Part shown: positions 2,839-36,219 of the stretch, one piece after another
How positions within the stretch are numbered: the stretch's first letter is position 1
How the letters are laid out: each line of letters begins with the position of its first letter
NCBI RefSeq assembly: GCF_017348835.2
Contig: NZ_CP071375.1
DNA length: 64,000 bases
Source of the DNA: Escherichia coli
Lineage (GTDB): Bacteria; Pseudomonadota; Gammaproteobacteria; Enterobacterales; Enterobacteriaceae
Reading direction: 5' to 3' (one strand)
Position numbers and translations under genes: made by a program
The notes under the pieces: generated by a model
What the model was told of the DNA's origin: nothing
The model's database searches: none
Seen by the model: only the letters and a program-made list of their open reading frames with translations

Positions 2839-2843
2839 TCGCC

Positions 2844-2879: not shown

Positions 2880-2945
2880 CTTTCTCATTGAGATGAAAAT
2901 TAAGGTAAGCGAGGAAACACACCACACCATAAACGGAGGCAAATA

Positions 2946-3041
2946 ATGCTGGGTAATATGAATGTTTTTATGGCCGTACTGGGAATAATTTTATTTTCTG
3001 GTTTTCTGGCCGCGTATTTCAGCCACAAATGGGATGACTAA
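2946..3041 (+). CDS. mgtS: Small membrane protein MgtS (31 aa)
   Basis: Translation MLGNMNVFMAVLGIILFSGFLAAYFSHKWDD; below the 60 aa cut-off of the ORF track. Confidence 0.85.
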   Translation: MLGNMNVFMAVLGIILFSGFLAAYFSHKWDD

Positions 3042-3068
3042 TGAACGGAGATAATCCCTCACCTAACC

Positions 3069-3108
3069 GGCCCCTTGTTACAGTTGTGTACAAGGGGCCT
3101 GATTTTTA
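3069..3108 (+). terminator. Rho-independent terminator after mgtS
   Basis: 10 bp perfect stem (ggccccttgt / acaaggggcc) followed by a T-run. Confidence 0.7.
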
Positions 3109-3116
3109 TGACGGCG

Positions 3117-3230
3117 AAAAAAAACCGCCAGTAAACCGGCGGTGAATGCTTGCATGGATAGATTTGTGTTTTGCTTTTACGCTAACAGGCATTTTCCTGC
3201 ACTGATAACGGATCGTTGACACAGTAGCAT
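3117..3230 (-). ncRNA. mgrR: Candidate MgrR-like PhoP-regulated sRNA (ends approximate)
   Basis: Minus-strand hairpin plus U7 terminator at 3117-3143 and PhoP-box-like repeat at 3250-3266; exact MgrR sequence not recalled. Confidence 0.4.
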
Positions 3231-3249
3231 CAGTTTTCTCAATGAATGT

Positions 3250-3266
3250 TAAACGGAGCTTAAACT
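3250..3266 (-). promoter_or_regulatory. PhoP-box-like direct repeat (AGTTTA N5 CGTTTA) on minus strand
   Basis: Two hexamers separated by 5 nt, overlapping the dgcZ stop codon. Confidence 0.4.
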
Positions 3267-4150: not shown

Positions 4151-4404
4151 TGCCACTCCTTTTTCACAGTTCCTTGTGCGCGCTATTCTAACGAGAGAAA
4201 AGCAAAATTACGTCAATATTTTCATAGAAATCCGAAGTTATGAGTCATCTCTGAGATAACATTGTGATTTAAAACAAAATCAGCGGATAAAAAAGTGTTT
4301 AATTCTGTAAATTACCTCTGCATTATCGTAAATAAAAGGATGACAAATAGCATAACCCAATACCCTAATGGCCCAGTAGTTCAGGCCATCAGGCTAATTT
4401 ATTT

Positions 4405-4797
4405 TTATTTCTGCAAATGAGTGACCCGAACGACGGCCGGCGCGCTTTTCTTATCGAGACTGCCGCTAATGTTGATCATCTGGTCCGGCTGAACTTCTCG
4501 TCCATCAAAGACGGCCGCAGGAATCACGACATTAATTTCACCGCTCTTATCGCGAAAAACGTAACGGTCCTCTCCTTTGTGAGAAATCAAATTACCGCGT
4601 AGTGAAACCGAAGCGCCATCGTGCATGGTTTTTGCGAAATCAACGGTCATTTTTTTTGCATCATCGGTTCCGCGATAGCCATCTTCTATTGCATGAGGCG
4701 GCGGTGGCGCTGCATCCTGTTTTAAACCGCCCTGGTCATCTGCCAACGCATAAGGCATGACAAGAAAACTTGCTAATACAATGGCCTGAAATTTCAT
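4405..4797 (-). CDS. ydeI: Periplasmic OB-fold (YgiW/BOF family) protein
   Basis: 130 aa with signal peptide; position between dgcZ and ydeJ. Confidence 0.75.
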
Positions 4798-5072
4798 ACT
4801 GACTCCTTAATTGCGTTTGGTTTGACTTATTAAGTCTGGTTGCTATTTTTATAATTGCCAAATAAGAATACTGCCAATTGTTATAAGGCATTTAAAATCA
4901 GCCAACTAGCTGTCAAATATACAGAGAATTTAACTCACTAAAGTTAAGAAGATTGAAGAGTCTTAAACATATTTTCAGAATAATCGGATTTATAAATTTG
5001 AATATTATTATAATGGAAGAGCATACAGAAAAAGCAAATCACCTTTACATATAATAGCGTGGACAAAAAACA

Positions 5073-5591
5073 GTGAACATTAATAAAGATAAAATTGTAC
5101 AACTCGCAGATACCGACACTATTGAAAACCTGACATCCGCGTTGAGTCAAAGACTTATCGCGGATCAATTACGCTTAACTACCGCCGAATCATGCACCGG
5201 CGGTAAGTTGGCTAGCGCCCTGTGTGCAGCTGAAGATACACCCAAATTTTACGGTGCAGGCTTTGTTACTTTCACCGATCAGGCAAAGATGAAAATCCTC
5301 AGCATAAGCCAGCAATCTCTTGAACGATATTCTGCGGTGAGTGAGAAAGTGGCAGCAGAAATGGCAACCGGTGCCATAGAGCGTGCGGATGCTGATGTCA
5401 GTATTGCCATTACCGGCTACGGCGGACCGGAGGGCGGTGAAGATGGTACGCCAGCGGGCACCGTCTGGTTCGCGTGGCATATTAAAGGCCAGAACTACAC
5501 TGCGGTTATGCATTTTGCTGGCGACTGCGAAACGGTATTAGCTTTAGCGGTGAGGTTTTCCCTCGCCCAGCTGCTGCAATTACTGCTATAA
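5073..5591 (+). CDS. ydeJ: CinA C-terminal domain (PncC-like) protein
   Basis: 172 aa ORF. Confidence 0.75.
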   Translation: MNINKDKIVQLADTDTIENLTSALSQRLIADQLRLTTAESCTGGKLASALCAAEDTPKFYGAGFVTFTDQAKMKILSISQQSLERYSAVSEKVAAEMATGAIERADADVSIAITGYGGPEGGEDGTPAGTVWFAWHIKGQNYTAVMHFAGDCETVLALAVRFSLAQLLQLLL

Positions 5592-5635
5592 CCAGGCTGG
5601 CCTGGCGATATCTCCAGGACAGCCATTGGTGGTGT

Positions 5636-7681
5636 TTATACGTTCAAGCCACGATGTTGCAGCATCGGCATAATCTGAGGTGCCTTACCGCGCCATTGTC
5701 GATACAGGCGTTCCAGATCTTCGCTGTTACCTCTGGAAAGGATCGCCTCGCGAAAACGCAGCCCATTTTCACGCGTTAGTCCGCCCTGCTCAACAAACCA
5801 CTGATAACCATCATCGGCCAACATTTGCGTCCACAGATAAGCGTAATAACCTGCGGCATATCCGCCACCAAAAATATGGGCGAAATAACTGCTGCGATAG
5901 CGTGGCGGTATAGCAGGAAGATCCATATTTTCCGCCACCAGCGCCCGCAATTCGAAATCATCGACATCCTGCATTGCTTCGTTTTCTTCCAGGCAATGCC
6001 AGCGCATATCGAGAAGTGCGGCGCTAAGCAGTTCGCTCATCTCATACCCTTTGTTGAACAGGCTGGCATTACGCATTTTCTGTTGCAGTTCGTCAGGCAT
6101 TGCTGCCCCGCTCTGATAATGCCGGGCGTAGCGAGCGAATACCTGCGGATGCGTTGCCCAGTGTTCGTTGATTTGCGAAGGAAATTCGACAAAATCACGC
6201 GGCGTGTTGGTGCCGGAAAGCGTGGCATAACGCTGGCGGGCAAAAAGGCCGTGCAGCGTATGACCAAATTCATGGAATAAGGTTATGACATCATCCCAGA
6301 GTAACAACGTAGGCTCACCGGCAGCAGGTTTCTGATAATTGCAGACGTTATAAATTACCGGATGCGTTTCATTAAGCGTTGATTGCTCAACAAAATTGCC
6401 CATCCATGCACCGCCGCTTTTTGAATCACGGGCGAAGAAATCACCGTAAAATAACGCCAGCCCCACGCCATTATGATCAAAAATTTCCCACACCCGAACG
6501 TCAGGATGGTAGACAGGAATATCAAAACGTTCGACAAACTTAATACCGAAGAGCTGATTCGCGGTCCAGAATACACCTTCATTCAACACCGTGTTTAATT
6601 CAAAATATGGCTTGAGCTGCGCCTCATCAAGATCAAATTTCTCCCGCCGTACCTGTTCGGCATAAAATGCCCAGTCCCACGGCTGCGCGCTAAACCCGCC
6701 TTGCTGCTTATCGATAACCGCCTGTATGGAGGCTAATTCATCGCTCGCACGTTGACGCGCCGCTGGAACAATTTCCCGCATAAAGTTAAGTGCTGCTTCA
6801 GGTGTTTTTGCCATCTGATCGGCGATTTTCCATGCGGCATAATGAGGAAAACCAAGTAATGTCGCCTGTTGTGCACGGATCTCCACCAGACGTTGAATGA
6901 TAGCGCGGGTATCATTGGCATCATTTTTTTCCGCTCGCGTCCAGCCCGCAATAAACAGTTTTTCACGCGTCGCACGATCGCGCATTTCGGCAAGCGCCGG
7001 TTGTTGGGTGGTATTCAGCAGCGGAATCAGCCATTTGTTATCCAGACCTTTCTCGCGAGCCGCCTCTGCCGCCAGCGCAATCTCTTGCTCACTCATTCCT
7101 GCCAGCTGCGCGATATCGTTCACAACCAGACCGCCGGATTTATTTGCTGCCAGTAATCGCTGGTTAAACTGGCTGGTCAGGGTCGCAGCTTCTGTATTCA
7201 GTACTTTTAATTTTGCTTTATCAGCTTGAGCAAGTTTGGCTCCGGCAAGGACAAAACGTTGATGAATCACCTCCACCAGGCGGATGGATTCACTATCAAG
7301 CCCCAGGGATTCACGGCGCTGCCAGACAGCATCTACCCGCGCGAATAATTCACCGTTCAGATAGATATCATTAGCAAGTTCCGCCAGTTCAGCGGAAAAC
7401 TGTTCATCAAGACGCTGTAATTCATCATTGGTATGCGCCGCAGTCATCGCAAAAAAGACGCTGGTAACGCGGGTAAGTAATTCTCCGCTTTGTTCCAGTG
7501 CCAGAATAGTATTGTTGAAATCAGGCGTTTGCGGGTTAAGCGCGATGGCAGCAATTTCTGCCCGCTTTTGCTGCATTCCCTCATCGAATGCCGGGCGATA
7601 GTGATGATTGGCAATTTGATCAAAATGAGGAGCCAGATACGGCAATGTGCTTTGCACAAGGAAAGGATTCATTGTTGTCAT
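5636..7681 (-). CDS. dcp: Peptidyl-dipeptidase Dcp (M3 zinc metallopeptidase)
   Basis: HEFGH zinc motif; start taken at MTTMNPF (681 aa). Confidence 0.9.
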   Translation of the reverse strand: MTTMNPFLVQSTLPYLAPHFDQIANHHYRPAFDEGMQQKRAEIAAIALNPQTPDFNNTILALEQSGELLTRVTSVFFAMTAAHTNDELQRLDEQFSAELAELANDIYLNGELFARVDAVWQRRESLGLDSESIRLVEVIHQRFVLAGAKLAQADKAKLKVLNTEAATLTSQFNQRLLAANKSGGLVVNDIAQLAGMSEQEIALAAEAAREKGLDNKWLIPLLNTTQQPALAEMRDRATREKLFIAGWTRAEKNDANDTRAIIQRLVEIRAQQATLLGFPHYAAWKIADQMAKTPEAALNFMREIVPAARQRASDELASIQAVIDKQQGGFSAQPWDWAFYAEQVRREKFDLDEAQLKPYFELNTVLNEGVFWTANQLFGIKFVERFDIPVYHPDVRVWEIFDHNGVGLALFYGDFFARDSKSGGAWMGNFVEQSTLNETHPVIYNVCNYQKPAAGEPTLLLWDDVITLFHEFGHTLHGLFARQRYATLSGTNTPRDFVEFPSQINEHWATHPQVFARYARHYQSGAAMPDELQQKMRNASLFNKGYEMSELLSAALLDMRWHCLEENEAMQDVDDFELRALVAENMDLPAIPPRYRSSYFAHIFGGGYAAGYYAYLWTQMLADDGYQWFVEQGGLTRENGLRFREAILSRGNSEDLERLYRQWRGKAPQIMPMLQHRGLNV

Positions 7682-7817
7682 TTTCTTCTCCTGAACGCGA
7701 GGTGTTCCATAGCGTAGGCTTACTGATAACGGAGTGCAATCTTGCAAACCAGTATTACCCGCTCTTAAGCATCACGTGCTATGTTATTGACACACAAAAG
7801 CGTTGAGGAACAGTGAG

Positions 7818-8564
7818 ATGATCGTTTTAGTAACTGGAGCAACGGCAGGTTTTGGTGAATGCATTACTCGTCGTTTTATTCAACAAGGGCATAAAGTTAT
7901 CGCCACTGGCCGTCGCCAGGAACGGTTGCAGGAGTTAAAAGACGAACTGGGAGATAATCTGTATATCGCCCAACTGGACGTTCGCAACCGCGCCGCTATT
8001 GAAGAGATGCTGGCATCGCTCCCTGCCGAGTGGAGCAATATTGATATCCTGGTAAATAATGCTGGCCTGGCGTTGGGCATGGAGCCTGCGCATAAAGCCA
8101 GCGTTGAAGACTGGGAAACGATGATTGATACCAACAATAAAGGCCTGGTATATATGACGCGCGCCGTCTTACCGGGTATGGTTGAACGTAATCATGGTCA
8201 TATTATTAACATTGGCTCAACGGCAGGTAGCTGGCCGTATGCCGGTGGTAACGTTTACGGTGCGACGAAAGCGTTTGTTCGTCAGTTTAGCCTGAATCTG
8301 CGTACGGATCTGCATGGTACGGCGGTGCGCGTCACCGACATCGAACCGGGTCTGGTGGGTGGCACCGAGTTTTCCAATGTCCGCTTTAAAGGCGATGACG
8401 GTAAAGCGGAAAAAACCTATCAAAATACCGTTGCATTGACGCCGGAAGATGTCAGCGAAGCCGTCTGGTGGGTGTCAACGCTGCCTGCTCACGTCAATAT
8501 CAATACCCTGGAAATGATGCCAGTTACCCAAAGCTATGCCGGGCTGAATGTCCACCGTCAGTAA
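7818..8564 (+). CDS. ydfG: NADP-dependent 3-hydroxy acid dehydrogenase (SDR family)
   Basis: TGATAGFG Rossmann motif; 248 aa from MIVLVTG. Confidence 0.85.
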   Translation: MIVLVTGATAGFGECITRRFIQQGHKVIATGRRQERLQELKDELGDNLYIAQLDVRNRAAIEEMLASLPAEWSNIDILVNNAGLALGMEPAHKASVEDWETMIDTNNKGLVYMTRAVLPGMVERNHGHIINIGSTAGSWPYAGGNVYGATKAFVRQFSLNLRTDLHGTAVRVTDIEPGLVGGTEFSNVRFKGDDGKAEKTYQNTVALTPEDVSEAVWWVSTLPAHVNINTLEMMPVTQSYAGLNVHRQ

Positions 8565-8652
8565 TTTTTATACCCGGCGTAACTGCCGGGTTATTGCTTG
8601 TCATAAAAAAGTGGTAGACTCATGCAGTTAACTCACTCACAAGCAAGAACGA

Positions 8653-9339
8653 ATGACCGTCGAAACGCAACTTAATCCCACACAGCCTGTCAATCAGCAG
8701 ATTTATCGTATCCTTCGTCGCGACATTGTCCATTGCCTGATTGCTCCAGGCACACCGTTGTCGGAAAAAGAAGTTTCTGTTCGTTTCAATGTGTCACGCC
8801 AGCCGGTTCGTGAAGCCTTTATTAAACTGGCGGAAAATGGTCTGATTCAAATTCGTCCGCAGCGTGGCAGCTACGTCAACAAAATTTCCATGGCCCAGGT
8901 GCGCAACGGCAGTTTTATCCGTCAGGCCATTGAGTGCGCGGTGGCGCGTCGGGCGGCGAGCATGATTACCGAAAGCCAGTGCTACCAACTGGAACAAAAT
9001 CTTCACCAGCAACGCATTGCCATTGAGCGCAAGCAACTGGATGATTTTTTTGAACTTGATGACAACTTCCATCAACTCCTGACGCAGATTGCCGACTGTC
9101 AACTGGCGTGGGATACCATTGAGAACCTGAAAGCGACCGTTGATCGCGTGCGCTATATGAGTTTCGACCATGTTTCTCCACCAGAAATGCTGTTACGCCA
9201 GCATCTTGATATTTTCTCTGCCCTGCAAAAACGTGATGGCGATGCGGTAGAACGTGCAATGACGCAACATTTGCAGGAAATCAGCGAATCCGTGCGCCAG
9301 ATCCGCCAGGAAAACAGCGACTGGTTTAGCGAAGAGTAA
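8653..9339 (+). CDS. ydfH: GntR-family transcriptional regulator
   Basis: 228 aa; N-terminal wHTH and FCD-like C-domain. Confidence 0.8.
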
Positions 9340-9515
9340 TTCATTTCCTCTCATCCCATCCGGGGTGAGAGTCTTTTCCCCCACCTTATGGCTCATGCAT
9401 GCATCAAAAAAGATGTGAGCTTGATCAAAAACAAAAAATATTTCACTCGACAGGAGTATTTATATTGCGCCCGTTACGTGGGCTTCGACTGTAAATCAGA
9501 AAGGAGAAAACACCT

Positions 9516-9719
9516 ATGACGACCTACGATCGTAACCGTAACGCAATCACCACTGGCAGCCGTGTTATGGTTAGCGGCACCGGTCACACTGGCAAGATCC
9601 TGTCGATTGATACTGAAGGTCTGACCGCTGAGCAAATCCGCCGCGGAAAAACCGTAGTTGTTGAAGGTTGTGAAGAGAAACTGGCACCTCTGGACCTGAT
9701 TCGTCTCGGCATGAACTAA
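9516..9719 (+). CDS. ydfZ: Small protein YdfZ (67 aa)
   Basis: ORF with RBS, followed by a strong terminator. Confidence 0.7.
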
Positions 9720-9726
9720 GCGTGTG

Positions 9727-9757
9727 AATGCCGCCGATGGCGGCATTGCTTTTTTTA
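9727..9757 (+). terminator. Rho-independent terminator after ydfZ
   Basis: aatgccgcc gatg ggcggcatt stem followed by T7. Confidence 0.7.
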
Positions 9758-11215
9758 CTTCACGGAATATTTCGCCGCGGTCGCTTTCGCGCCATGCGCT
9801 AATAAAGACAAGTACGCTTCCGTCACTTTTGCAGTAAACAAGCTATTGTCTGGCAAATCATCACCAAAGATTGCCTTAATCGCCAGCAATGACTGGACGC
9901 GCGCTTTACCTTCGGCACTACTTTGTACAGCCTTCTGAATAACAGGTAACAGTGGGTCACTGATTTCAATCGGATTTCCCTGTTCATCAACACCACCGAC
10001 ATAACGCATCCAACCCGCGACGCCCAGCGCCAGCAGATCGAACTTGCTGTCATGCGCCAGATGCCAGCGAACAGAATCCAACATCCGCTGTGGCAATTTC
10101 TGGCTGCCATCCATCGCAATCTGCCAGGTTCGATGGCGTAACGCCGGGTTGCTATAGCGTGCAATTAATCGGTTAGCGTAATCTTGCAAATCAACGCCCT
10201 TCACTTTCAGCGTCGGCGCTTGTTCCTGCAACATCAAGCCATACGCCGCATGACGATAATGTTCATCTTCCATACAGTCATTAATGTGCTGATATCCGCT
10301 AAGATAACCCAGATACGCCAGGAATGAATGACTGCCGTTGAGCATGCGCAACTTCATCTCTTCATAAGGCAGTACATCGCTAACCAGTTCTGCTCCCGCT
10401 TTTTCCCATTCCGGACGTCCGGCAACAAAATTATCTTCTATTACCCACTGGCGGAAAGGTTCACAGGCAACGCCAGCAGGATCGCGCACACCGGTAAGTT
10501 GTTCGATTTTCGCCAGCGTATCCTCTGTCACTGCGGGCACAATACGGTCCACCATTGTTGATGGGAAAGTCACGTTATCTTCGATCCATTGTGCCAGTTT
10601 TACATCAACGGCTTGTGCGTAAGAAGTGACAACGTCACGCGCAACATGACCGTTTTCTGGCATGTTGTCACATGACATGACGGTAAATGCGGGAAGTCCT
10701 GCCGCTTTACGGCGAGCCAGCGCCTCAACAATCACCCCTGTTGCTGTTTTCGGCTGGTGGGGATTTTGCACGTCGGCAGCGACCATCGGGTGATCGAGCA
10801 TTAACTGTCCGGTCGCCGGAGAGTGGAAATACCCTTTTTCGGTGATTGTCAGAGAGACAATCGCGATTTGTGGTTCACACATCGCAGCCAACACGGTTTC
10901 TAAGCCATCTATCTGTACGTGCAAGGCTTTTTTAACGACGCCAACGACGCGAGCCGTCCACGCATCGGCCGACATTTCCGCAACGGTATAAAGATTATCT
11001 TGCTGTTGTAAATCGGCAATTTGCTGTTCGCCACCGATTATGTTGACCTCATAATATCCCCAGTCACTGAAATGTTCTGTAGCAAGAATATCGGCATACA
11101 CGCCCTGATGCGCACGGTGAAATGCACCAAAGCCTAAATGAACAATTCTTGGGGCCAGGTTATTACGATCATAAACAGGGAGCGTCGCTTTTGCTGATAA
11201 CAAATTATTTCCCAT
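9755..11215 (-). CDS. ydfI: Mannitol/mannonate-dehydrogenase-family oxidoreductase
   Basis: 486 aa; long-chain mannitol dehydrogenase-like sequence. Confidence 0.8.
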
Positions 11216-11304: not shown

Positions 11305-12588
11305 TTACAGACTTCTGGAAGGTTGCGCAGCTCTTACAACACGCGGTTGATCTTCCGCGGCGTCTTCCAGCGCACTTAAATCACGGTCTTTCACTTCTGG
11401 CATTTTCAGCGCAGAGATTAAACCAATCACTGAATATGCCATGATCATAATGGCGATCGGATACCAGGATTCCGTCATGGTGCAGAAAATACCCGCCAGG
11501 ATAGGACCAAAACCGGAAGCGATAAGACCACCAATTTCTTTAGAAATAGCCATCCGGGTAAAGCGGTTTTTACAGCCGAACATTTCTGCCATGGTAATGT
11601 TTTCCAGAGCAAATAATCCCAGCACCGCACAGTTATGAATCACAATCAGTGCAACCATAATGGTGCTCGGGGCATAGCTTTTATCTACGATGATAGAAAG
11701 CATTGGCCATGCCAGCACAATCGCAGAGGTATTCATAATAATATACGGGATCCGGCGACCAATTTTATCGGATAACCAACCAAGGAACGGAATGGTCATA
11801 AAGCCGAGAATCGAACTGATCATCAATGCATCTGTTGGAATTGCTTTGTTAAACAATAACGTCTGTACTAAATAGCCTGCAAGGAAAGTCTGAATTAAAC
11901 CGGAGTTACCCGCCTGACCAAAACGCAGCCCTGTTGCCAGCCAGAAGGATTTGCTCTGGAACATGCTACCAGCAGGTGCAGGTTTTGCTGTCGGTTGGTT
12001 GCTGTCGTTAACCTTCTCAAAGACCGGGCTTTCTTTCAGATTCATACGCAACCAGATAGCAAAGACCATCACGACAACGCTCGCCAGGAACGGTATACGC
12101 CATCCCCACGCCAGCAGTTCCTCTTTACTGAGAATGAAGAACATAAAGGCCCAGATTGCCGTTGCGCTTAAGGTTCCGCAGTTAGTTCCCATAGCCACAA
12201 ATGAGGAGATAATTCCGCGCTTACCTTTTGGCGCATATTCCGCCAGCATCGTACCGGCACCGGAAATTTCCGCACCCGCACCCAACCCCTGAATAATACG
12301 CAGCGTCACCAGCAAGATGGGGGCAAAAACACCAATCTGTGCATAGGTCGGTAACACTCCAATTAAGGTGGTACAGATCCCCATCATGGTGATGGTAATA
12401 AAGAGCACTTTTTTACGCCCTATTCTGTCGCCCATTTTGCCGAAAATAAATGCTCCGACAATACGCGCCACATAACCTGCACCGCAGGTTCCCATTGCCA
12501 AAATTAACGCCATTGCCGTTGATGATTCAGGAAAAAATATTTCATGAAACACTAACGCAGCGCCGAGCGAATATAACTGGAAATCCAT
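11305..12588 (-). pseudogene. ydfJ: MFS metabolite transporter YdfJ, 5'-truncated by prophage insertion
   Basis: 427 aa ORF starts exactly at the prophage junction; the missing N-terminal 28 codons are at 33292-33374 on the other side of the prophage. Confidence 0.75.
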
Positions 12589-12594
12589 AATTCA
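12580..12594. repeat. Prophage att core copy (gaaatccataattca)
   Basis: Near-identical to 33292-33306; lies at the ydfJ junction. Confidence 0.55.
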
Positions 12595-24493: not shown

Positions 24494-24555
24494 TTTTGGA
24501 GATTTTGGGGAGTTGAACCGCCCCGGGTTTCCTGGAGAGTGTTTTATCTGTGAAC

Positions 24556-25443
24556 TCAGGCTGCCAGATCATTATTTCCGATGGAAGCATAATAAGCTTT
24601 TTCTGCTTCTGCCGGAGGAATATGGCCCAGCCTTTCCAGCAATCGTCGATTGTTATACCAGTCCACCCACGTTAGTGTGGCCAGTTCCACTTCTGTCCGG
24701 TTTTTCCAGCTCTTACGGTGTATTACCTCCGCTTTGTAAAGACCATTGATGCTCTCAGCCATCGCGTTGTCATACGAGTCGCCAGTACTCCCTGTTGATG
24801 CCAGTAATCCGGCTTCCTTAAGCCGCTGCGTGTAGGCCAGCGATACATACTGAGAACCTTTATCACTGTGATGGATTGTGCCGGACGGCCGACGGGCCCA
24901 CAACGCCTGCTCCAGTGCATCCAGCACGAATGTTGTTTCCATGGATGATGAGACCTGCCATCCCACGATGTATCCGGCGAACACATCAATGATGAACGCC
25001 ACATAAACGAAGCCCTGCCATGTGCTTACCCAGGTAAAATCAGCCACCCACAACTGGTCTGGACGTTCTGCCACGAACTGACGGTTTACGCGGTCGCATG
25101 CGGCAACGGCTTTCCGGCTGACGGTAGTGCGGACCTTTTTACCCCGGAGAACACCGGCAAGTCCCATAACTGCCATGAGACGTGCCACAGTGCATCTGGC
25201 CACTCTGATACCTTCCCGTAACAACTGACGCCAGACTTTACGCACACCGTATACCTGGTGATTTTCATCGTATACGCGCTGTATCTCTTTCTTCAGCCAG
25301 TCATCGTGCTGCGCACGGGCACTGCGTTTATCCGGATGATGTCGCTGTTGCTGACAATGGTAATACGTTGACGGGGCAATATGCAGTTCGCTGCATACCG
25401 GTCCGACCCCGTACTGCTCACGCAGCTTATCCAGCAGTGGCAT
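24556..25443 (-). CDS. IS3-family transposase OrfB (DDE catalytic domain)
   Basis: 295 aa integrase-core ORF. Confidence 0.85.
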   Translation of the reverse strand: MPLLDKLREQYGVGPVCSELHIAPSTYYHCQQQRHHPDKRSARAQHDDWLKKEIQRVYDENHQVYGVRKVWRQLLREGIRVARCTVARLMAVMGLAGVLRGKKVRTTVSRKAVAACDRVNRQFVAERPDQLWVADFTWVSTWQGFVYVAFIIDVFAGYIVGWQVSSSMETTFVLDALEQALWARRPSGTIHHSDKGSQYVSLAYTQRLKEAGLLASTGSTGDSYDNAMAESINGLYKAEVIHRKSWKNRTEVELATLTWVDWYNNRRLLERLGHIPPAEAEKAYYASIGNNDLAA

Positions 25444-25769
25444 TATTTTTTCCAGAGGCGGTCGAACTCCGCCTTCGCAAAATAAGCGGAAGCCTGGCGA
25501 AGGATATCGTTACTGCGGCGCAGTTCACGATTTTCACGTTCCAGCTCTTTCAGACGCTGACGTTCAGCGGTGGTGAGTCCACCATCACCACTCCCGGTAT
25601 CCCGCTCATGCTGGCGAACCCAGACACGCAGAGTCTCCGGCGTACAGCCAATCTTTGGGGCAATGGAACAAATTGCCGCCCACTGTGAGTCATATTCATC
25701 CTGACTTTCCAGAACCATACGAATCGCCCGCTGACGGACTTCGGGGGAAAAACGAGTATTTTTAGTCAT
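25443..25769 (-). CDS. IS3-family transposase OrfA (HTH + leucine zipper)
   Basis: 108 aa, [33 protein letters not shown]... Confidence 0.85.
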
Positions 25770-25874
25770 CCTGTTTACCTCTTTCTCAGGGAGTTTAGTC
25801 TCCAGGATTTCCGGGGCGGTTCATTAAAGATTTTTTTGTGCATGCCGATAGTGCTTTTTTAAAAGGAGAAATCT

Positions 25875-26207
25875 ATGTCTGTCACAATTCAGGGAAATAC
25901 CTCAACCGTTATTTCAAACAACTCCGCCCCGGAAGGAACATCAGAAATAGCCAAAATCACAAGACAAATTCAGGTGCTGACTGAAAAGCTTGGGAAAATC
26001 TCATCGGAAGAGGGGATGACGACACAGCAGAAAAAAGAAATGGCTGCATTGGTACAGAAGCAAATTGAAAGCCTCAGGGCTCAACTGGAGCAGTTGTTAA
26101 GGCAGCAGGCAGAGAAAAAGAATGAAGACGCGACAGTTCAGCCTGATAAAAAAGAAGAGAAAAAAGACGATACAAATACCGCTGGCACCATTGATATTTA
26201 CGTCTAA
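25875..26207 (+). CDS. flxA: FlxA-like protein (110 aa)
   Basis: Length and coiled-coil-like sequence; Qin context. Confidence 0.6.
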   Translation: MSVTIQGNTSTVISNNSAPEGTSEIAKITRQIQVLTEKLGKISSEEGMTTQQKKEMAALVQKQIESLRAQLEQLLRQQAEKKNEDATVQPDKKEEKKDDTNTAGTIDIYV

Positions 26208-26221
26208 GTGACAGCCGTATT

Positions 26222-26244
26222 GTGGCCCTCATCGGGCCACTTTT
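26222..26244 (+). terminator. Rho-independent terminator after flxA
   Basis: gtggccc tcatc gggccac followed by TTTT. Confidence 0.65.
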
Positions 26245-26643
26245 CGCCATCAGCCTTTTCTTTAAAGACATATTATCTTTGTATCATTTCTGATAGTTAA
26301 CATTACAAGATATAAGTAATGGACGCACTCCCAATTAGTCTATTTAAATCGCCACGAGTTTAACTGACAACCCATGATCAATTATGAATTGCAACTATTT
26401 CTGTAGTCACTTTTGTGGGGACAGTCCACAAAACTGCCAACTTCCGCTTCTTGCTCTTAGCGGACATTAGCATAGGCTATTTACCATAACGCCTCATTAC
26501 GCGCACCGCCCAGACTGACTCAGCGCGTTTCTGGCATATCCCCGGTAAAACAAGTAACAAACCACCCGAAAATGAACACCAGAAACGCGACTTAAGAATC
26601 TACCCTATGAATGGATATGCACTCAACCGAATCGATCTTGGTT

Positions 26644-27985
26644 TCAATCTTTTTTATCGGGATCAGGCTTCTTTTTAGGTAACTTCGGGGGCTTAACTTG
26701 CTGATGACTTTGCGTTCGGCGCGTAAGCCAGGGATGGTCAGCTTTAGGTTTAACATAGTATTTTGAGCGTAAATCAATACGGGCATTATCCACTCGTTCA
26801 TGGACACTCTTTTCATCATCCAGTGGTATAGGCTCCGGGCCATCAACATACTTTTCCCAGCCCAGCGCTTTCCCGTCATACAGAACGTTAATTTCACCGT
26901 CAAAGTTCTCGCATACAGTAACAACCGAATGCCTAAGTCGATATCCCCGGCCCTCACTGCGTACCTGAAACGCACTGCTTTTGTACTGGAAAGTGAGATT
27001 TTTAGACAGAACGCGCTTCGCCTGTAGGCTGAAGATATAACCCAGTTCCTCTTCAGAATGGTGCACATCAAGATGAGCATTATCAGTAGTACGAGGCGAC
27101 GTAGCGAACCGGTTGTTATAGGCTTCAATAAAGGTCGGCAACCATGCATTTGCTGTTTCAATATCACTGATATTCTGAAGCCGCATTTCTTTGACCAGCC
27201 TGTCCTGTAGTGTCTGATTGGCGCGCTCTACCCGCCCTTTTGCCTGCGGGCTGTTGGCATGGATTGGCTCGATGCCCAGTGTCTTTATCGCACGAGTGAA
27301 CTGGGTCAGCTCACCTTCCCGCTCTGGGTTATTTACCCTGAATATACTGTGTCTATCAGAGTAGAGAGCGAGCGGTACGCCATGATCATTAAGGTAACCC
27401 CGGAGGGTTTCCATGTAAGCCCGGGTTGTTTCAGCAGGCACAAAACGCAACGCCATCAACGCACTGGTGGCATCATCAATGAAAACGATCAGTGTACATC
27501 TGGGGCCTCGATTTTCAAACCAGTCATGAGGTGAGCCATCAATCTGGATCAGTTCACCGTAAGATGGTCGTCGCATGCGGCGTTGATATATACGGGCAAT
27601 TTTACGACGGCGTTCACGCCATACCCCCCTCTTCTATCATCCACTTTCTGAGAGTTTCAACGGATAAAGATAAACCGTGTATCTCGCGCAATTTTTCGCA
27701 CGCAAACGTAGGTCCAAAATCAGCGTAACGGCCTTTGAGGAGTGAAATTACTGTTGCTCTGAATTCAGTAGAAAAGGAATTATTAGGACGCTTTCCACGT
27801 CGGTGGGAAACCAGACCAGAAGGCCCTTCATTTCTATACCGTTGCACCAGACGTTTAACCTGCCGAATAGAAATGCCAATGCGTGCCGCAGCTTGTTCCT
27901 GAGTAATATGTCGATTAATTGACTCCTGAATAATCTGAAGTCGGTGGAGTTCCTTATGACTCATCGTAACAGTTTCTTTGGTCAT
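26644..27985 (-). pseudogene. DDE transposase (integrase-core; IS481/ISNCY-like) split by a frameshift
   Basis: N-terminal HTH part 27614-27985 and catalytic part 26644-27576 are in different frames; junction at a C6/G6 run around 27624-27629. Confidence 0.65.
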
Positions 27986-29651
27986 GAAAAATCCCCCAGA
28001 GAATTGTCTGGGGACATTTTAGAATGGTTCAAAGGGGACATTACAGCTTGGTGTTAACAATAGCCTGCTTCTCCTTGCCTTTCGGCACGTAAGAGGCTAA
28101 CCTACATGTGTCTGGCATGAAATTGGCCTCAGATTAATGTTAAGCGTCTTGCAGGACGCGTAATGTTAACTGGGGCTTTTCTCTACCTGCCGTTGGTGTT
28201 CGTGCCCGAGGCAGATAGCCTCAAGCACCCGCAGTCATTCTACTTAACTAAGATTTCCCCGCAAACCGTTTTTGTCCAGCACAGTAAATATCCAACTAAA
28301 CCAATGGAGTTCGCTGTATTTACCGCCAGTATTCAATGCACATGACCGCCATGAACACCCCTAAAAAAAGGGCATTTATATATCCAAATATTAATATCAA
28401 AACATCAACTTTTTCCATATACCTTGCTGTGAAGATGATGGGCATACATGATGCGAACAACCAGAACGCAACAAACAAAAACTGCAATGCGTTTTTCATT
28501 ATTCCTCCTACAATCAATGTGCAATTACATTTAAACACACCTCAATTTGGCCGGACATATAAATATCTAAACCAGAAAAAATCACTTACATAGCGTTACA
28601 AACTCTTTAGTCTAAAGGTTCATCGTAAAACATTCCCCATACTTATCAGTCCGTTCCGCGCCAGGTAGCTCATTGCCTTATCTGGCAACCTGTAATCAGG
28701 TTTCCGCTTTTTCAGTTGGCTGGTCGTTTAACCGACATAGTTAACCCATTAATCTAGTTGCCGGATGTTGGTGGATTTTCGCGTTTTAGTTGTTCATAAA
28801 AGTGCACAGCTTTAACCAATTCTTCTGATGTAACCGGGACTGGTGAGGCAGTGAATAAGGCCTGAATTTGATAGTTCGGCCTGTCGTTACAATCCTCTTT
28901 TTTCGGTACATATTTCCAGTCACCAGACCACTACTTCCCCTGAAAGTCCGTAACGCCTTTTTTCACGTAGCGATATCGCCATGTCACTGGTTTTGCTTGC
29001 CCCGCCGTTTCATGCCCTTCCTGATAATTAATCTCGCTCATTCATCGCCCCACTCATCACAATATGCTTCGACCGGAGTTTTTCCCGCTTCATAGTCATC
29101 ACGCTAGGATTCGACATCAGCAGCACTTCCACCGCGTAACTCACCATAGTCCATTAATAGTTCATCCCGCTCTTCAAAACTGATGTTATATTTAGCTGAA
29201 CAAAAATCAGCCACTTTGTTCTTCCTCATCGTCTTTTATTTCGTGGTATGAGTAATTGCAGTAGTTAAAGAAAATTTCTTATGCTCCGTCATGAATTTCA
29301 TCAGGTGTTGCGTCATCGTCCACTTCGAATACATCCTCAAAATCTCCACCAGCTATTCCCGTTTCAATAATAATTTTGAACTTTCGCATTTCACTACCGC
29401 CCTTTCGGGCGGCCTCCTGATGTTCTGAGGGTGCAGAAATCCATCCGGTTAAGGATTAAGTTTTATTTACAGAACTGAATTTAATTATTCAGATATACGT
29501 ATCTGTAACCTTACGAATCTACTCACTGGATGCCTCTTTCATAAAAATAATCCAGTGGGTTTTATCGTTTTTTCCCTGTTCGTTGACAGATAACAGGCTT
29601 TCTATCTGTCAGTGCCAGAATCTGGCTTACCGGTATTTGCGTTTCATTCCA

Positions 29652-30008
29652 TTAAAAAATCAGAACGCCGTGCGGCCTCAACACCCGAAAAGCTTCTTTA
29701 AATCTCTGTCGCAAATCATCACGCCAGGCATCTTTATTCAGCCGTCCATATTTCTTTCCCATCCAGGCGTTATCACCAACACGCTCAAGATGCGGAGGGT
29801 CTAATACAACCATCGAAAAAGATGCGTCTGCAAATGATAATGCACGAAAATCTGCGATAATGTCAGGGCTGATAATCAAGCGTCTCCCATTGCGTAATGT
29901 GTATCCTTCTTTTCTGATATCGCTAAATATCGCCCGTTCGTCAGACTTATCGAACCAGAACATGCGGCTGCCACAGCACATATCAAGAATGGTTGCCGGT
30001 GCACTCAC
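29652..30008 (-). CDS. DNA methyltransferase fragment (DPPH-type motif)
   Basis: 118 aa with VVLDPPHL motif; short for a complete MTase. Confidence 0.45.
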   Translation of the reverse strand: MSAPATILDMCCGSRMFWFDKSDERAIFSDIRKEGYTLRNGRRLIISPDIIADFRALSFADASFSMVVLDPPHLERVGDNAWMGKKYGRLNKDAWRDDLRQRFKEAFRVLRPHGVLIF

Positions 30009-30535
30009 TGCGCCACGTCCTGAAAATTACCCTGATAGAAAGCCAGTATGCGCTGCATAACTTCGCTCTTCCGGCACTCGCGACAGATTATGTTTAGGCG
30101 ACTGTCGTAGCGACGTATTTCTCCGTCAGGTGATGACCAGATAAGGTCCGGATCAACCACAGCAGGTTTCTTCACCTTTGCCCTCGAGAGTTTTTTGCGG
30201 GCGTTTTGCCAGTCCTTACGCGCCTGTTCAGAGGGGAATAACCCGTATCTGATATCCCAAAAAATGAAACCGCACCGGAAGCTGAACCATCTGTAGAGCG
30301 TGAGGGGCCGTTCTATTTCCTCTTCGCAGATAAGGACGGAGAAAAATACGGTCGCGCAAACAAACTTTCTGGTCTGGATAAGGCACTGGCTGCTGGCGCC
30401 ACTGAAATCACAAAAGAAGAATATTTTGCCCGAAAAAATGGCACATACACGGGCTTACCGCAAAATGTAGATACCGCTGAAGATTCAGAACAACCAGAGC
30501 CGATAAAAGTTACCGCTGACGAAGTAAACAAAATT

Positions 30536-31615
30536 ATGCAGGCAGCCAATATCAGCCAGCCTGACGCCGATAAGTTGCTTGCTGCATCACGTGGTGAATT
30601 TGTTGAAGGGATTAGTGACCCGAATGATCCGAAATGGGTTAAGGGGATCCAGACCCGCGATTCTGTGAACCAGAACCAGCATGAATCGGAACGGAACTAC
30701 CAAAAAGCGGAACAAAACAGCCCAAATGCGTTACAAAACGAGCCAGAAACGAAACAGCCTGAATCAGTGGCGCAACAGGAAGTGGAAAAAGTCTGCACCG
30801 CCTGCGGTCAGACCGGCGGCGGCAACTGCCCTGATTGTGGCGCGGTGATGGGCGACGCAACATACCAAGAAACATTCGATGAAGAGTATCAGGTTGAAGT
30901 TCAGGAAGATGATCCGGAGGAAATGGAAGGCGCTGAACATCCACACAAGGAGAACGCTGGCGGCAATCAGCATCACGATAGCGATAATGAAACTGGCGAG
31001 ACGGCAGATCACTCAATTAAGGTGAACGGTCATCACGAAATCACATCCACCAGCAGGACGTGTGACCATCTAATGATCGACCTTGAAACCATGGGAAAAA
31101 ATCCTGATGCCCCGATCATCTCAATAGGTGCAATATTTTTCGATCCGCAAACCGGAGATATGGGACCGGAATTTAGTAAGACTATCGATCTGGAAACTGC
31201 TGGCGGAGTCATTGATCGGGACACCATTAAATGGTGGCTTAAGCAATCACGCGAAGCGCAATCGGCCATTATGACCGATGAAATCCCGTTAGATGATGCA
31301 CTGTTACAATTGCGGGAATTTATCGACGAAAACTCCGGTGAATTTTTTGTTCAGGTTTGGGGAAATGGAGCCAACTTCGACAACACGATTTTGCGCCGTT
31401 CATACGAACGGCAGGGGATCCCCTGCCCGTGGCGTTACTACAACGATCGCGATGTACGCACAATCGTTGAGCTGGGGAAAGCCATAGACTTCGATGCCAG
31501 AACGGCTATTCCATTCGAAGGTGAGCGCCATAATGCACTTGATGACGCCCGTTACCAGGCAAAATACGTTTCAGTTATCTGGCAAAAACTGATCCCGAGT
31601 CAGGCTGATTCTTAA
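30536..31615 (+). CDS. Prophage protein with C-terminal DEDDh-type 3'-5' exonuclease domain
   Basis: MIDLETMG... and HNALDDARY motifs; acidic low-complexity N-region; the frame is open upstream without an ATG. Confidence 0.6.
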
Positions 31616-31687
31616 TGTTCAACTGTCGCCGGTTGTGACTGGTATTCTGCAACCGGCGCTCGTCTGATGTAAGAGATAAAGAAATCG

Positions 31688-31939
31688 ATGAGCGAAGTAA
31701 TCATGATTGTCTCTCCCGGCAAATGGGTATCCGAAGAGCAGTTAATTGCGCTGAAAGGAATAAAAAAAGGTACGTTAAAAAAGGCCCGGGAAAAATCGTT
31801 TATGGAAGGAAGGGAATATAAGCATGTCGCTCATGACGGTATGCCATGGGATAACAGTCCATGCTTTTACAACCTGGAAGAAATTGATCGCTGGATTGAG
31901 CGCCAGGCATCAGCAAGACCAAGACGTCATCTTACTTGA
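31688..31939 (+). CDS. Excisionase-like protein
   Basis: 83 aa basic ORF immediately upstream of the integrase. Confidence 0.55.
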   Translation: MSEVIMIVSPGKWVSEEQLIALKGIKKGTLKKAREKSFMEGREYKHVAHDGMPWDNSPCFYNLEEIDRWIERQASARPRRHLT

Positions 31940-31958
31940 CTAAAAGCCACACTAACTA

Positions 31959-33254
31959 ATGAGAGAAGTTGAAATGAAATATCCGACAGGCGTGGAAAAC
32001 CATGGAGGGAAATTACGTATCTGGTTTGTTTATAAAGGCGTAAGAGTCAGGGAAAACCTGGGGGTTCCTGACACAGCAAAAAACAGGCGCGTTGCAGGTG
32101 AGCTACGCGCCTCTGTTTGTTACGCAATAAAAACTGGTGTTTTCGACTATGCAAAACAGTTTCCCTCCTCACGCAATCTGGAAAAATTTGGTGAGACTCG
32201 ACAAGATTTAACCATAAAAGAACTGGCTGAAAAATTTCTGGCACTGAAAGAAACTGAAGTCGCAAAAACATCACTCAACACATACCGTGCCGTCATCAAA
32301 AATATCCTGAGCATAATCGGTGAAAAAAATCTTGCCTCATCGATTAATAAAGAAAAATTACTGGAGGTTCGTAAAGAGCTACTGACTGGATACCAGATCC
32401 CCAAAAGTAACTATATTGTTACACAACCAGGGAGATCGGCTGTAACTGTAAATAATTACATGACAAATCTTAACGCCGTGTTCCAGTTTGGTGTTGATAA
32501 CGGTTACCTGGCAGATAACCCGTTTAAGGGGATCTCGCCATTAAAGGAATCAAGAACCATTCCGGATCCTCTTTCGCGGGAGGAATTCATCCGTCTTATC
32601 GATGCGTGCAGAAATCAGCAAGCCAAAAATTTATGGTGTGTTTCTGTTTATACTGGCGTTCGCCCTGGTGAGCTGTGTGCACTTGGATGGGAGGACATAG
32701 ATCTGAAAAATGGAACAATGATGATCAGGAGAAATTTAGCAAAAGACCGTTTCACGGTACCAAAAACACAGGCGGGAACCAATCGGGTCATTCATCTTAT
32801 TAAGCCAGCAATCGACGCTCTCCGGAGTCAGATGACATTAACGAGACTGAGCAAAGAGCATATCATTGATGTTCACCTCAGAGAGTATGGCAGAACAGAA
32901 AAACATAAATGCACCTTTGTTTTTCAACCTGAAGTGTCAGCGAGAGTAAAAAATTATGGTGACCATTTTACCGTTGACTCAATAAGGCAGATGTGGGACG
33001 CAGCGATAAAACGTGCCGGACTCCGCCATCGAAAATCATATCAGTCGAGACATACTTATGCCTGCTGGTCGCTGACAGCTGGTGCTAATCCGGCATTTAT
33101 AGCAAACCAGATGGGCCATGCAGATGCGCAAATGGTATTTCAGGTATACGGAAAATGGATGTCTGAAAACAATAATGCACAGGTAGCTTTGTTAAATACA
33201 CAGTTAAGCGAGTTTGCCCCAACCATGCCCCATAACGAAGCAATGAAAAATTAA
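31959..33254 (+). CDS. Tyrosine-type site-specific integrase (apparently intact)
   Basis: 431 aa; C-terminal catalytic region with R...HxxR...Y context; ~40 bp from the att repeat. Confidence 0.85.
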   Translation: MREVEMKYPTGVENHGGKLRIWFVYKGVRVRENLGVPDTAKNRRVAGELRASVCYAIKTGVFDYAKQFPSSRNLEKFGETRQDLTIKELAEKFLALKETEVAKTSLNTYRAVIKNILSIIGEKNLASSINKEKLLEVRKELLTGYQIPKSNYIVTQPGRSAVTVNNYMTNLNAVFQFGVDNGYLADNPFKGISPLKESRTIPDPLSREEFIRLIDACRNQQAKNLWCVSVYTGVRPGELCALGWEDIDLKNGTMMIRRNLAKDRFTVPKTQAGTNRVIHLIKPAIDALRSQMTLTRLSKEHIIDVHLREYGRTEKHKCTFVFQPEVSARVKNYGDHFTVDSIRQMWDAAIKRAGLRHRKSYQSRHTYACWSLTAGANPAFIANQMGHADAQMVFQVYGKWMSENNNAQVALLNTQLSEFAPTMPHNEAMKN

Positions 33255-33291
33255 TTTAATATTTATCAAATAGTTGACACGTATGACTCTT

Positions 33292-33306
33292 GAAATCCAT
33301 AAATTC
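33292..33306. repeat. Prophage att core copy (gaaatccataaattc)
   Basis: Direct repeat of 12580-12594. Confidence 0.55.
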
Positions 33307-33374
33307 AAGCGCAGTGCCCAGCCATCCCGATACTGCTGCTTTCACCAAATCCTTAGTGCTTCTTTCGTGTTTTT
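33292..33374 (-). pseudogene. 5' fragment of ydfJ (N-terminal 28 codons) separated from the gene body by the prophage
   Basis: Minus-strand MTIEKHERSTKDLVKAAVSGWLGTALEFMDF runs into the att repeat; continues logically into MDFQLYSLG at 12588. Confidence 0.55.
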
Positions 33375-33441
33375 CTATTGTCATAATGGTTATCTCTAAA
33401 AAAGAGGTAAGATGCGTACTACTTACTCGCAGTTATTGGTA

Positions 33442-34461
33442 TTATTCAGAAAAAGTGAGTAAGACTTTGCAGCAATGTTTTTGATCCTGTTCAAATAAAC
33501 TAATGGCATCAGCAACATGCTGGAAATCAAACGTATGGGTAATTAATTTTTCTGGTTTAATTAACCCTTTACTTAACCAGTCGATAACGACCGGAAATTT
33601 ATTTGCATTTAAGCGTGAAGAGAAAATAGAGAGTTCTTTTCCGGTAATTCCTTGCTGAATCACTTCAGACGGTTCACTGGAGAACCCCATCAATACAATA
33701 CGTGCCGCTGGAGAAGCCAGCGTTACGGCCTCTTTCAGGATAGAAGGATGACAAGCCGCATCGATAATTAATGTCGGCTTGATGCCTTTTTCAGTGAAAA
33801 TCTCGCCAAGCGGTGTCTGGCTGTTATTAATCGCCCAGTCAGCCCCGCTCTCTTTCGCTTTTTCCAGTCGTTCATCAATGCGATCGGCAACAATCACATT
33901 TTTAACGTTATAGACGCCTTTTAATACCTGAACGATCGTCAGGCCGATTGGACCGGCACCGTAAACCAGAACGGTATCATTTTCAGTCGGTTGACCATGA
34001 CCGGTTACGTTAGCCGCAATGGTAAAAGGTTCGATCATCACCGCATATTGATCGGCCACTGCTTCAGGAATTTTCCACGCATTTTTTGCCGGAACCACAG
34101 CATATTCACTGAAACCACCGTCAACGTGCACACCTAATACAGCGAGTGTCGTACAAACGTTCGGCTTACCTATAGAGCACGGATAGCAATGACCACAGCT
34201 GACCACCGGATCGACAGCAACACGTTCACCGACTCTGGTGCTTTCCACACCTTCACCCACCGCATCAATGACGCCAAAGAATTCATGTCCAATGACGCGC
34301 GGATATTTCGCAAAAGGATTATGCCCACGATAAATATGGCTATCTGAACCACAAATTCCGGCAAGTTTTACTTTTACTCGTACTTCACCCGCTGACGGGG
34401 TGGGTATTTCACGTTCGACAATCGCCAGTTGATTCGGTTTTTCAATTAATATGCTTTTCAT
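33442..34461 (-). CDS. rspB: Zn-dependent alcohol-dehydrogenase-like starvation-sensing protein RspB
   Basis: GHE...C zinc-ADH signature; 339 aa from MKSIL. Confidence 0.85.
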   Translation of the reverse strand: MKSILIEKPNQLAIVEREIPTPSAGEVRVKVKLAGICGSDSHIYRGHNPFAKYPRVIGHEFFGVIDAVGEGVESTRVGERVAVDPVVSCGHCYPCSIGKPNVCTTLAVLGVHVDGGFSEYAVVPAKNAWKIPEAVADQYAVMIEPFTIAANVTGHGQPTENDTVLVYGAGPIGLTIVQVLKGVYNVKNVIVADRIDERLEKAKESGADWAINNSQTPLGEIFTEKGIKPTLIIDAACHPSILKEAVTLASPAARIVLMGFSSEPSEVIQQGITGKELSIFSSRLNANKFPVVIDWLSKGLIKPEKLITHTFDFQHVADAISLFEQDQKHCCKVLLTFSE

Positions 34462-34472
34462 TATCTTACTCC

Positions 34473-35687
34473 TTACCAGTTCCACAGCGTGCCATCTTCC
34501 AGACGTGCGACTGGCAGATAAGCAGGTTCATAGGGATATTTCGCCGCCAGCTTTTCATCGAATTCGATGCCAAGACCCGGTTTGTCTCCCGGATGCATAT
34601 AGCCGTTATCGAAAGTCCAGTTGTGCGGGAAGACTTCGAGCATTTGTTCGGAATAACCCATGTATTCCTGGACACCGAAATTGGGGACCCACAGATCAAA
34701 GTGCAGCGCCGCAGCCATGCAGACTGGTGACAAATCGGAAGGACCGTGTGAGCCAGTACGTACCTGATACAGCGAAGCAAAATCGGCAATCCGGCGCATA
34801 CCGGTAATTCCGCCTGCATGGGTCAGCGTGGTGCGGATATAATCGATAAGTTGCTCTTCAATCAGTTGCTTGCAGTCCCAGATGCTGTTGAAGACTTCAC
34901 CCACTGCGATGGGTGTGACGGTATGTTGGCGAATGAGACGGAAGCATTCCTGGTTTTCCGCAGGCGTCGGGTCTTCCATCCAGAACATGCGATAATCTTC
35001 AATGCTTTTACCAAAGCGCGCCGCTTCAATAGGCGTTAAGCGATGGTGCATGTCATGCAGCAAATGTTCATTAAAACCAAACTTGTTACGTACCGCGTCA
35101 AACAATTTCGGCATGAAATCGAGGTATTTCTCCGTCGACCACAGCTGCTCTTCCGGCCACTGTCCTTTGGTTGCGGGTTCATAAGCCAGACCTTTACCTT
35201 TCGACATGCCGTAGGTGGTTTTCATACCAGGGATTCCGCACTGCACGCGGATGGCTTTGAATCCAAGCTCCTGATGACGGGCATAATCATCCAGAGCTTC
35301 ATCAATACTGTGACCGGTGGTATGGCAATAAACCATCCCCCCTTCACGAGACGCGCCGCCGAGTAACTGGTAAAGCGGCATGTTGGCAGCTTTGGCTTTA
35401 ATATCCCACAGCGCCATATCAACCGCTGAAATGGCCGACATCGTAACCGGACCGCGACGCCAGTAAGCACCTTTATAGAAAAACTGCCAGATATCTTCGA
35501 TACGGTGCGCATCGCGACCAATAAGCTGCGGACAAAGGTGATCCTGCAAATAAGAGGCCACGGAAAGCTCACGTCCATTGAGGGTGGCATCCCCAAGGCC
35601 CGTAATACCGTCCTCAGTGGTGATTTTTAATGTGACGAAATTACGTCCCGGACAGGTAACAAAAACTTCAGCCTTTACGATCTTCAT
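34473..35687 (-). CDS. rspA: Enolase-superfamily mannonate dehydratase RspA
   Basis: 404 aa from [10 protein letters not shown]. Confidence 0.85.
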
Positions 35688-35892
35688 GTTCGATTCCTTG
35701 CATCGCTTGTCGTGATGCATGAAATCTACGCAACTGAGCTACTACCATACAAGTATGAAGATCGAAAAAAGCCGGAGTGATCGCAAAAAAAGGCGTATAT
35801 TTGCGCTGTGAATGGTTGACAAAAGATGAAATAGAATACCTTTTGTCAGCTGACACTTCCTCGTATCTTATTGATAAAATGGATTTATGTTC

Positions 35893-36219
35893 CTACGTGC
35901 GCCCCCAGCCCGCAACAATGATCAACATGCCGCAAAGCGCAATCAACGCCCCCGTCCAGTCATAAAGAGTCAGTTTCACGCCATCCACAACGCGCAGCCA
36001 AATCAACGCAGTGCAGACATAAACGCCACCATAAGCCGCGTAAACACGCCCACTCGCCGCAGGATGCAACGTTAACAACCAGACAAACAGCGCCAGTGAA
36101 ATTCCCGCCGGAAGCAACAGCCAGATACTGGCGTTTCGTTTTAACCACAACCAGGGCAGAAAGCATCCAATAATTTCACACAGCGCAGTAGCAAAAAATA
36201 GTAACGTTGTTTTAATCAT
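35893..36219 (-). CDS. ynfA: UPF0060 small membrane protein
   Basis: 108 aa, 4-TM-like profile. Confidence 0.8.

Follow-up and report, generated by a model that had tools for sequence, protein, structure and literature searches.

The two open reading frames without start codons that meet near position 30245 of the window, the 64,000-nt stretch of Escherichia coli DNA analyzed here, are almost certainly the 3' parts of two divergent genes in a decayed Qin-type cryptic lambdoid prophage, joined at the scar of a deletion. The initial annotation had considered that they might mark a rearrangement that removed 5' ends, and this was borne out: one deletion, of 5,233 bp relative to phage PhiR42_1 (PV340562.1; a relative about 0.7% diverged in the flanks, and not the direct ancestor), took the 5' ends of both genes. 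The features concerned are listed below with their window coordinates.

29652..30008, minus strand: SAM-dependent methyltransferase ORF, 118 aa; its GTG start overlaps the lygF stop (GTGA)
30005..30247, minus strand: lygF / DUF977 remnant, codons 61-140 and stop; the start and the N-terminal 60 codons are deleted
30248..30454, minus strand: fortuitous extension of the lygF frame past the junction, 69 noncoding codons lying antisense to the exonuclease remnant
30245..30247, no strand: deletion junction, GTA common to both parental sequences (3-bp microhomology)
30242..30535, plus strand: start-less stretch, 98 codons; bases 30245-30535 encode residues 368-464 of the 823-aa protein
30245..31615, plus strand: remnant of the gene for an 823-aa phage protein, residues 368-823 and stop; the N-terminal 367 codons are deleted
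31067..31582, plus strand: Rv2179c-like 3'-5' exoribonuclease domain (Pfam PF16473), complete, inside the remnant

Full-length relatives of both genes were found by tblastn against phage genomes, and both conceptual translations matched only the C-terminal parts of longer phage proteins. The plus-frame translation was identical at 451 of 456 positions to residues 368-823 of the PhiR42_1 protein XSB42569.1, with 100% identity to residues 368-464 across the start-less stretch. The alignment starts at residue 368, the native start and the N-terminal 367 residues being absent, and the ATG at 30536, which opens an ORF of 359 aa (30536..31615, plus strand), corresponds to the internal Met465 of the full-length 823-aa protein. 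The PF16473 match (227.8 bits) covered profile positions 2-177 of 177 and residues 276-447 of the 457-aa translation; in the 823-aa protein this domain is C-terminal and is preceded by a 640-residue N-terminal part. The 823-aa protein is called 'exodeoxyribonuclease VIII' in several phage records. A Pfam scan of the full protein (E<=0.01) for a RecE-type C-terminal nuclease domain, which we take to be Exonuc_VIII in Pfam, returned only PF16473 and a weak RNase_T match, and domain content therefore does not support the 'ExoVIII' label. In strain PE164, which is 100% identical to the window over 27107-35952 and 99.97% identical over 24.5 kb upstream, the NCBI annotation pipeline PGAP annotates 30275-31615 (plus strand) as '3'-5' exoribonuclease domain-containing protein, incomplete, missing N-terminus'.

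The minus-frame translation was identical to residues 61-140 of the 140-aa LygF of PhiR42_1 at 80 of 80 positions, and matched Pfam PF06163 over profile positions 62-134 of 134 with 55.2 bits (Pfam gathering cut-off 22.1). It is not a complete DUF977 protein: only positions 62-134 of the profile are represented and the homologous start codon is absent. PGAP on PE164 likewise describes 30005-30247 (minus strand) as 'DUF977 family protein, incomplete, missing N-terminus'. A literature search for 'LygF' gave nothing relevant, the matches being lysozyme g genes. In the phage early-right operon the methyltransferase ORF follows lygF; its length and 4-nt overlap with lygF equal those of PhiR42_1 9544-9900. 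Its weak Pfam matches (Methyltransf_11 and Methyltransf_25) extend to the C-terminus, and the 118-aa form may therefore be a truncated class I methyltransferase even where it counts as 'intact'. PGAP flags the methyltransferase of this haplotype as 'frameshifted; internal stop' (29519-29963); in other haplotypes the 118-aa protein is accepted as intact (WP_001310834.1).

Comparison with the intact phage located the scar to the nucleotide. Window positions 29001-30247 align to PhiR42_1 10551-9305 and positions 30245-32000 to 4074-2319; the two flank blocks are collinear, have the same relative orientation, show about 99.2-99.3% identity to the phage, and meet in an overlap of 3 bp, the window aligning only outside PhiR42_1 4075-9304. 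With a slash marking the breakpoint, the parental lygF side reads ...AACCCGTA/GCCGGAG and the parental exonuclease side ...GAGGTA/TCTGATATCC, and the window reads ...AACCCGTATCTGATATCC, with one copy of GTA kept. The endpoint sequence at the lygF site is CAGAGGGGAATAACCCGTAH, immediately before the base that is G in the parent. Side-by-side comparison with PhiR42_1 revealed no IS element, filler or foreign DNA at the junction.

The gene order of PhiR42_1 is int, xis, the 823-aa gene (2704-5175, minus strand), ydfD, the ydfC/B/A homologues, cI, cro/DicC, cII, O, lygF (9125-9547, plus strand) and the methyltransferase (9544-9900, plus strand). The full-length lygF and exonuclease-domain genes are thus divergent in the phage; about 4 kb separates their starts, and the immunity and replication genes occupy the interval. 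PhiR42_1 resembles the window in flank identity (99.2-99.3% at the DNA level), gene order and the 4-nt lygF-methyltransferase overlap, and differs from it in carrying the 5,233 bp with the full 823-aa gene, the segment from ydfD to O and the full lygF. The lost segment comprises codons 1-367 of the exonuclease-domain gene, ydfD, dicB, the DicF RNA gene, ydfC, ydfB, ydfA, both repressor genes (cI and cro), the cII-like gene, the replication gene O and lygF codons 1-60. DicF (Rfam RF00039, 76.7 bits) is located at PhiR42_1 5819-5870, inside the missing interval, and an Rfam search of window 28000-33500 found no DicF.

Within the window, the plus frame of the ORF at 30536..31615 is open back to a TAA at 30239-30241, giving 98 sense codons (30242-30535). 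This agrees with the roughly 100 open codons upstream of the first ATG given in the initial annotation; the limit of about 30220 assigned to the stretch was inexact, the true edge at 30242 lying about 20 nt further downstream. The peptide quoted for this frame was located from 30314 onward. On the minus strand, the peptide ...RYDSRLNIICRECRKSEVMQRILAFYQGNFQDVAQ was located in a frame that stops at TGA 30005-30007 and is open for 149 codons (30008-30454), bounded by TAA 30455-30457. The description of this frame as being without ATG is nearly correct, save for one late ATG in the codon ending at 30058; GTG codons occur at 30175, 30160 and 30016, and none at the true-start position. It was also rightly said to abut the methyltransferase fragment, as the lygF TGA overlaps the methyltransferase GTG by 4 nt (GTGA), and to overlap the plus frame, since it extends 69 codons past the junction, antisense to the exonuclease remnant. 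For these 69 codons upstream of LygF residue 61, BLASTP detected no homology. That the frames are open is more than chance: they consist of genuine coding sequence, with 99% and 100% identity to internal segments of full-length phage proteins, and both would remain open only since this coding sequence is recent and little mutated.

The use of a non-ATG start, which had been proposed as the alternative to a scar, is contradicted by the homologues, which reach 367 residues further upstream and place ATG 30536 at Met465; they do not start at that ATG, and the frame upstream of it is conserved among them. A search for ATG, GTG or TTG across all 98 codons of 30242-30535 found none. The open stretch does contain ATC, CTG, ATA and ATT codons and the catalytic domain is complete, so that one might picture an intact exonuclease gene with a CTG/ATT/ATC-type start within 30242-30535 and a longer functional product. 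We regard this as extremely improbable, given that intact phages and many E. coli prophages have the true start 367 codons before this stretch, that homology ends exactly at the DNA deletion junction, that a consensus scan showed no promoter-like site nearby, and that PGAP calls the gene a pseudogene. The head-to-head layout could also suggest an inversion breakpoint, or another complex rearrangement in place of a simple deletion, the two remnants being on opposite strands and both lacking 5' ends. However, lygF and the exonuclease-domain gene are natively divergent, already lying on opposite strands and pointing away from the immunity region in the intact phage, and an inversion is therefore unnecessary; the two collinear, same-orientation blocks with a single gap, and a junction without IS or foreign DNA, make such an event hardly credible.

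Under the simple deletion, which we prefer, neither remnant is expected to be active. A promoter and terminator scan of 29400-31800 yielded three promoter-like sites, a count no higher than in shuffled sequence; none was near the junction, and hence there is no support for expression of either remnant. Inspection by eye of the 15 nt before ATG 30536 showed no Shine-Dalgarno-like sequence. We infer from the sequence that both remnants are silent pseudogenes, because the deletion took both operon promoters and both starts, although the truncated exonuclease with its complete domain could be translated from an internal start if a read-through transcript exists. This is ordinary prophage decay, and both pseudogenes are already marked in the public annotation (PGAP). 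The start-less frames should consequently be treated as pseudogene remnants, and neither annotated as genes nor taken as evidence of unusual initiation.

The early-left operon of the intact phage comprises ydfA-C, dicF, dicB, ydfD, the 823-aa exonuclease-domain gene, xis and int, and the early-right operon cro/dicC, the cII-like gene, O, lygF and the methyltransferase; transcription of the two diverges from the immunity region. In the proposed course of events, microhomology-mediated loss of 5,233 bp left the two truncated genes head to head at GTA 30245-30247, and may have come about stepwise, via less-deleted alleles with one endpoint in common. DicB and DicF are toxic on overexpression and DicA and DicC behave like CI and Cro (PMC10448788), and ydfD is a lysis gene (PMC8835842). 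For these reasons, loss of the toxic dicB/dicF/ydfD cassette together with replication and immunity functions was plausibly neutral or favored for the host.

An excisionase gene (31688-31939, plus strand) and a tyrosine integrase gene (31959 or 31974 to 33254, plus strand), both apparently intact, adjoin rspB (33442-34485, minus strand), with rspA next in the PE164 annotation; xis-int beside rspB show this to be where a prophage inserted at the Qin attachment site has its int end. The prophage is integrated in ydfJ, which PGAP shows as a pseudogene at the opposite end in PE164, and the PE164 annotation contains the Qin late and accessory set of ydfK, pinQ, tfaQ, nohA, cspI/B/F, rzpQ, rrrQ, essD and ydfT; this wider annotation identifies the element as a Qin-type cryptic prophage. 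The dicA-dicC-dicBF immunity region of Qin is missing from the window, as it lies in the deleted segment. The window thus shares with K-12 Qin the split ydfJ site, an int gene beside rspB, the same late and accessory genes and the character of a defective lambdoid remnant. K-12 Qin has retained its dicA-dicC-dicBF immunity region, and its integrase is disrupted; in the window, by contrast, int and xis are apparently intact and the whole dicA/dicC/dicBF/O segment is deleted. A cryptic prophage can therefore lose O, dicA/dicC, dicB, DicF and ydfD yet keep int, xis and the cold-shock and lysis cassettes.

Several further features were observed in this prophage. An 11-bp exact repeat, GAAATCCATAA, is present at both prophage ends (33292-33302 and 12580-12590), inside the split ydfJ. 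It is part of an imperfect inverted repeat (CTTGAAAT...AATTCAAG) and a candidate for the attachment core. A Sok antitoxin RNA (Rfam RF01794, 99.8 bits) at 28059-28230 (minus strand), just upstream of the methyltransferase region, implies a putative hok/sok-type toxin-antitoxin locus in the prophage remnant. In the identical strain, PGAP lists two more pseudogenes on the minus strand, one (29207-29389) for a DUF7167 family protein interrupted by an internal stop and one (28620-29041) for a frameshifted hypothetical protein; the whole nin-like region is decaying. The stretch at 24513-27985 is rich in IS elements; it contains an IS3-family element together with a truncated IS1202-like (ISEsa1) transposase. 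Upstream of 27107 the window and PE164 differ only in IS arrangement, the IS3 copy being inverted or placed differently, and the window therefore comes from a close relative of PE164 and not from PE164 itself.

To place the allele among its relatives, 29600-31700 was compared by megablast with 5,426 complete E. coli genomes. Two strains, PE164 and F2_81, both from pigs, were identical across the query, and about 87 further genomes covered it in two pieces with an extra 613 bp between them. Junction counts from 120-nt probes across three junctions in the same genomes were 2/5,426 for the window junction (allele C), 90/5,426 for allele B, in which the lygF remnant is joined to the exonuclease remnant at PhiR42_1 4687, and 1/5,426 for allele A, in which an O remnant is joined to the exonuclease remnant at the same position. 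Allele B (e.g. VG48B2, NZ_CP128584.1) has the same head-to-head pair of truncated lygF and exonuclease genes as the window, both labeled 'missing N-terminus' by PGAP, and a lygF endpoint identical to the nucleotide; it differs in retaining 613 bp more of the exonuclease-domain gene and in its haplotype on the methyltransferase side. Its junction, GTA/TCCGGAG, arose at the direct repeat GTAKCCGGAG (9/10 match). At this chromosomal site, alleles with smaller deletions keep progressively more of the missing segment. Among the alleles of this common Qin-type prophage, the one in the window is accordingly rare and more eroded.

Eleven more alleles from other multi-piece matches were mapped on PhiR42_1. 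They are listed together with the window, each pair of numbers giving the phage bases at which retention ends on the exonuclease side and resumes on the lygF side.

KL53: 5728, 8727
PSJ-16: 5728, 9243
MB19: 5728, 9300
strain 1303 (4 genomes): 5728, 9568
PSJ-12: 5579, 8835
allele A: 4687, 8835
allele B: 4687, 9300
window, allele C: 4074, 9300
GF31: 6778, 8727
S1-CAM-01-C: 6776, 7892
ETEC group (17 genomes): 7803, 9408
MB06021: 9408 on the lygF side

With these alleles at hand, the window scar can also be read as a second, one-sided deletion at GTATC that removed 613 bp from allele B or 1.65 kb from an MB19-type allele. The window, allele B (90 genomes) and MB19 have the same lygF endpoint to the nucleotide, sharing of one endpoint recurs over the 12 alleles, and the microhomology is longer from B or MB19 than from the intact phage (5 bp, GTATC, against 3 bp, GTA): measured against the common sister allele B, the shared stretch is 30245-30249, and the B and C junctions differ across this 5-bp repeat. 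The flank SNPs, on the other hand, do not nest the window in B, and group it with A and MB19 on the methyltransferase side, outside B. Moreover, MB19 is sister to A, in which lygF is intact, so that the lygF endpoint would have arisen more than once if the SNP tree is trusted. Gene conversion could have scrambled these SNPs, since a genome contains a median of 2-3, and at most 16, places that match these prophage modules. On balance, we consider a second, one-sided step a serious possibility that falls only a little short of probable.

Endpoints were re-used among the alleles: at least 12 IS-free junction types use about 14 distinct endpoints instead of 24. In PhiR42_1 coordinates, 5728 was used four times, 9300 three times, and 4687, 6778, 8727, 8835 and 9408 twice each. 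The crossover contained TA in 11/11 junctions with both parents known, and the microhomology ranged from 2 to 8 bp. The hub sites 4687, 5728 and 9300 have GTAKCCGG in common. This motif accounts for pairs such as MB19 and B through repeat-mediated deletion, but not for the re-use of hubs with unrelated partners. Deletions between short direct repeats are classically described for E. coli lacI; the alleles here resemble those deletions in that the junction keeps one copy of a short repeat (2-8 bp across alleles), and depart from a simple random-repeat model in that endpoints are re-used with different partners and TA is found at every checkable junction. Two readings of this pattern are possible: deletions may grow one-sidedly from an existing junction, or certain TA sites may be intrinsically hot. 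The flank SNPs pair A with MB19 on both flanks, though neither junction can be derived from the other, and provide weak evidence in favor of recurrent use of the same sites; the evidence is weak because the repeated modules can exchange sequence. That the deletions stem from a site-preferring process, in which specific TA sites undergo breakage or strand exchange or erosion restarts exactly at an existing junction, seems to us unlikely. If true, a process of this kind would gradually rid Qin-type prophages of the toxic immunity and dicBF region, and the endpoint re-use could modestly inform how prophages are disarmed, provided that a specific mechanism lies behind it.

Candidate causes of the re-use were examined individually. 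A search for repeats and palindromes around three junctions found only short repeats at chance level and no large palindrome. The 8-mer GGCGTTAA, present near three endpoints, was unexceptional, as about 100 different 8-mers occur at least three times in these 6 kb. Folding of single-stranded DNA in 71-nt windows at 13 endpoints gave Z values from -2.1 to +2.0 and no consistent hairpin, and placement of endpoints at hairpin bases was not supported. Int-mediated recombination at secondary att sites is unlikely, the core GAAATCCATAA being unrelated to GTAKCCGGAG. The site consensus of the DNA invertase PinQ is AAACC-NN-GGTTT, and no such site was noticed by eye at the endpoints. No IS element was present at the junction of the window or of the 11 other alleles. 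A separate case was observed in NT1N31 (NZ_CP075480.1, locus 2553-3314). There, IS1 lies exactly between PhiR42_1 positions 8206 and 5240, with a nearly complete O on one side (8206) and sequence from upstream of the exonuclease-domain gene on the other (5240); this strain lost the same immunity and dicBF segment independently, in an event associated with IS1.
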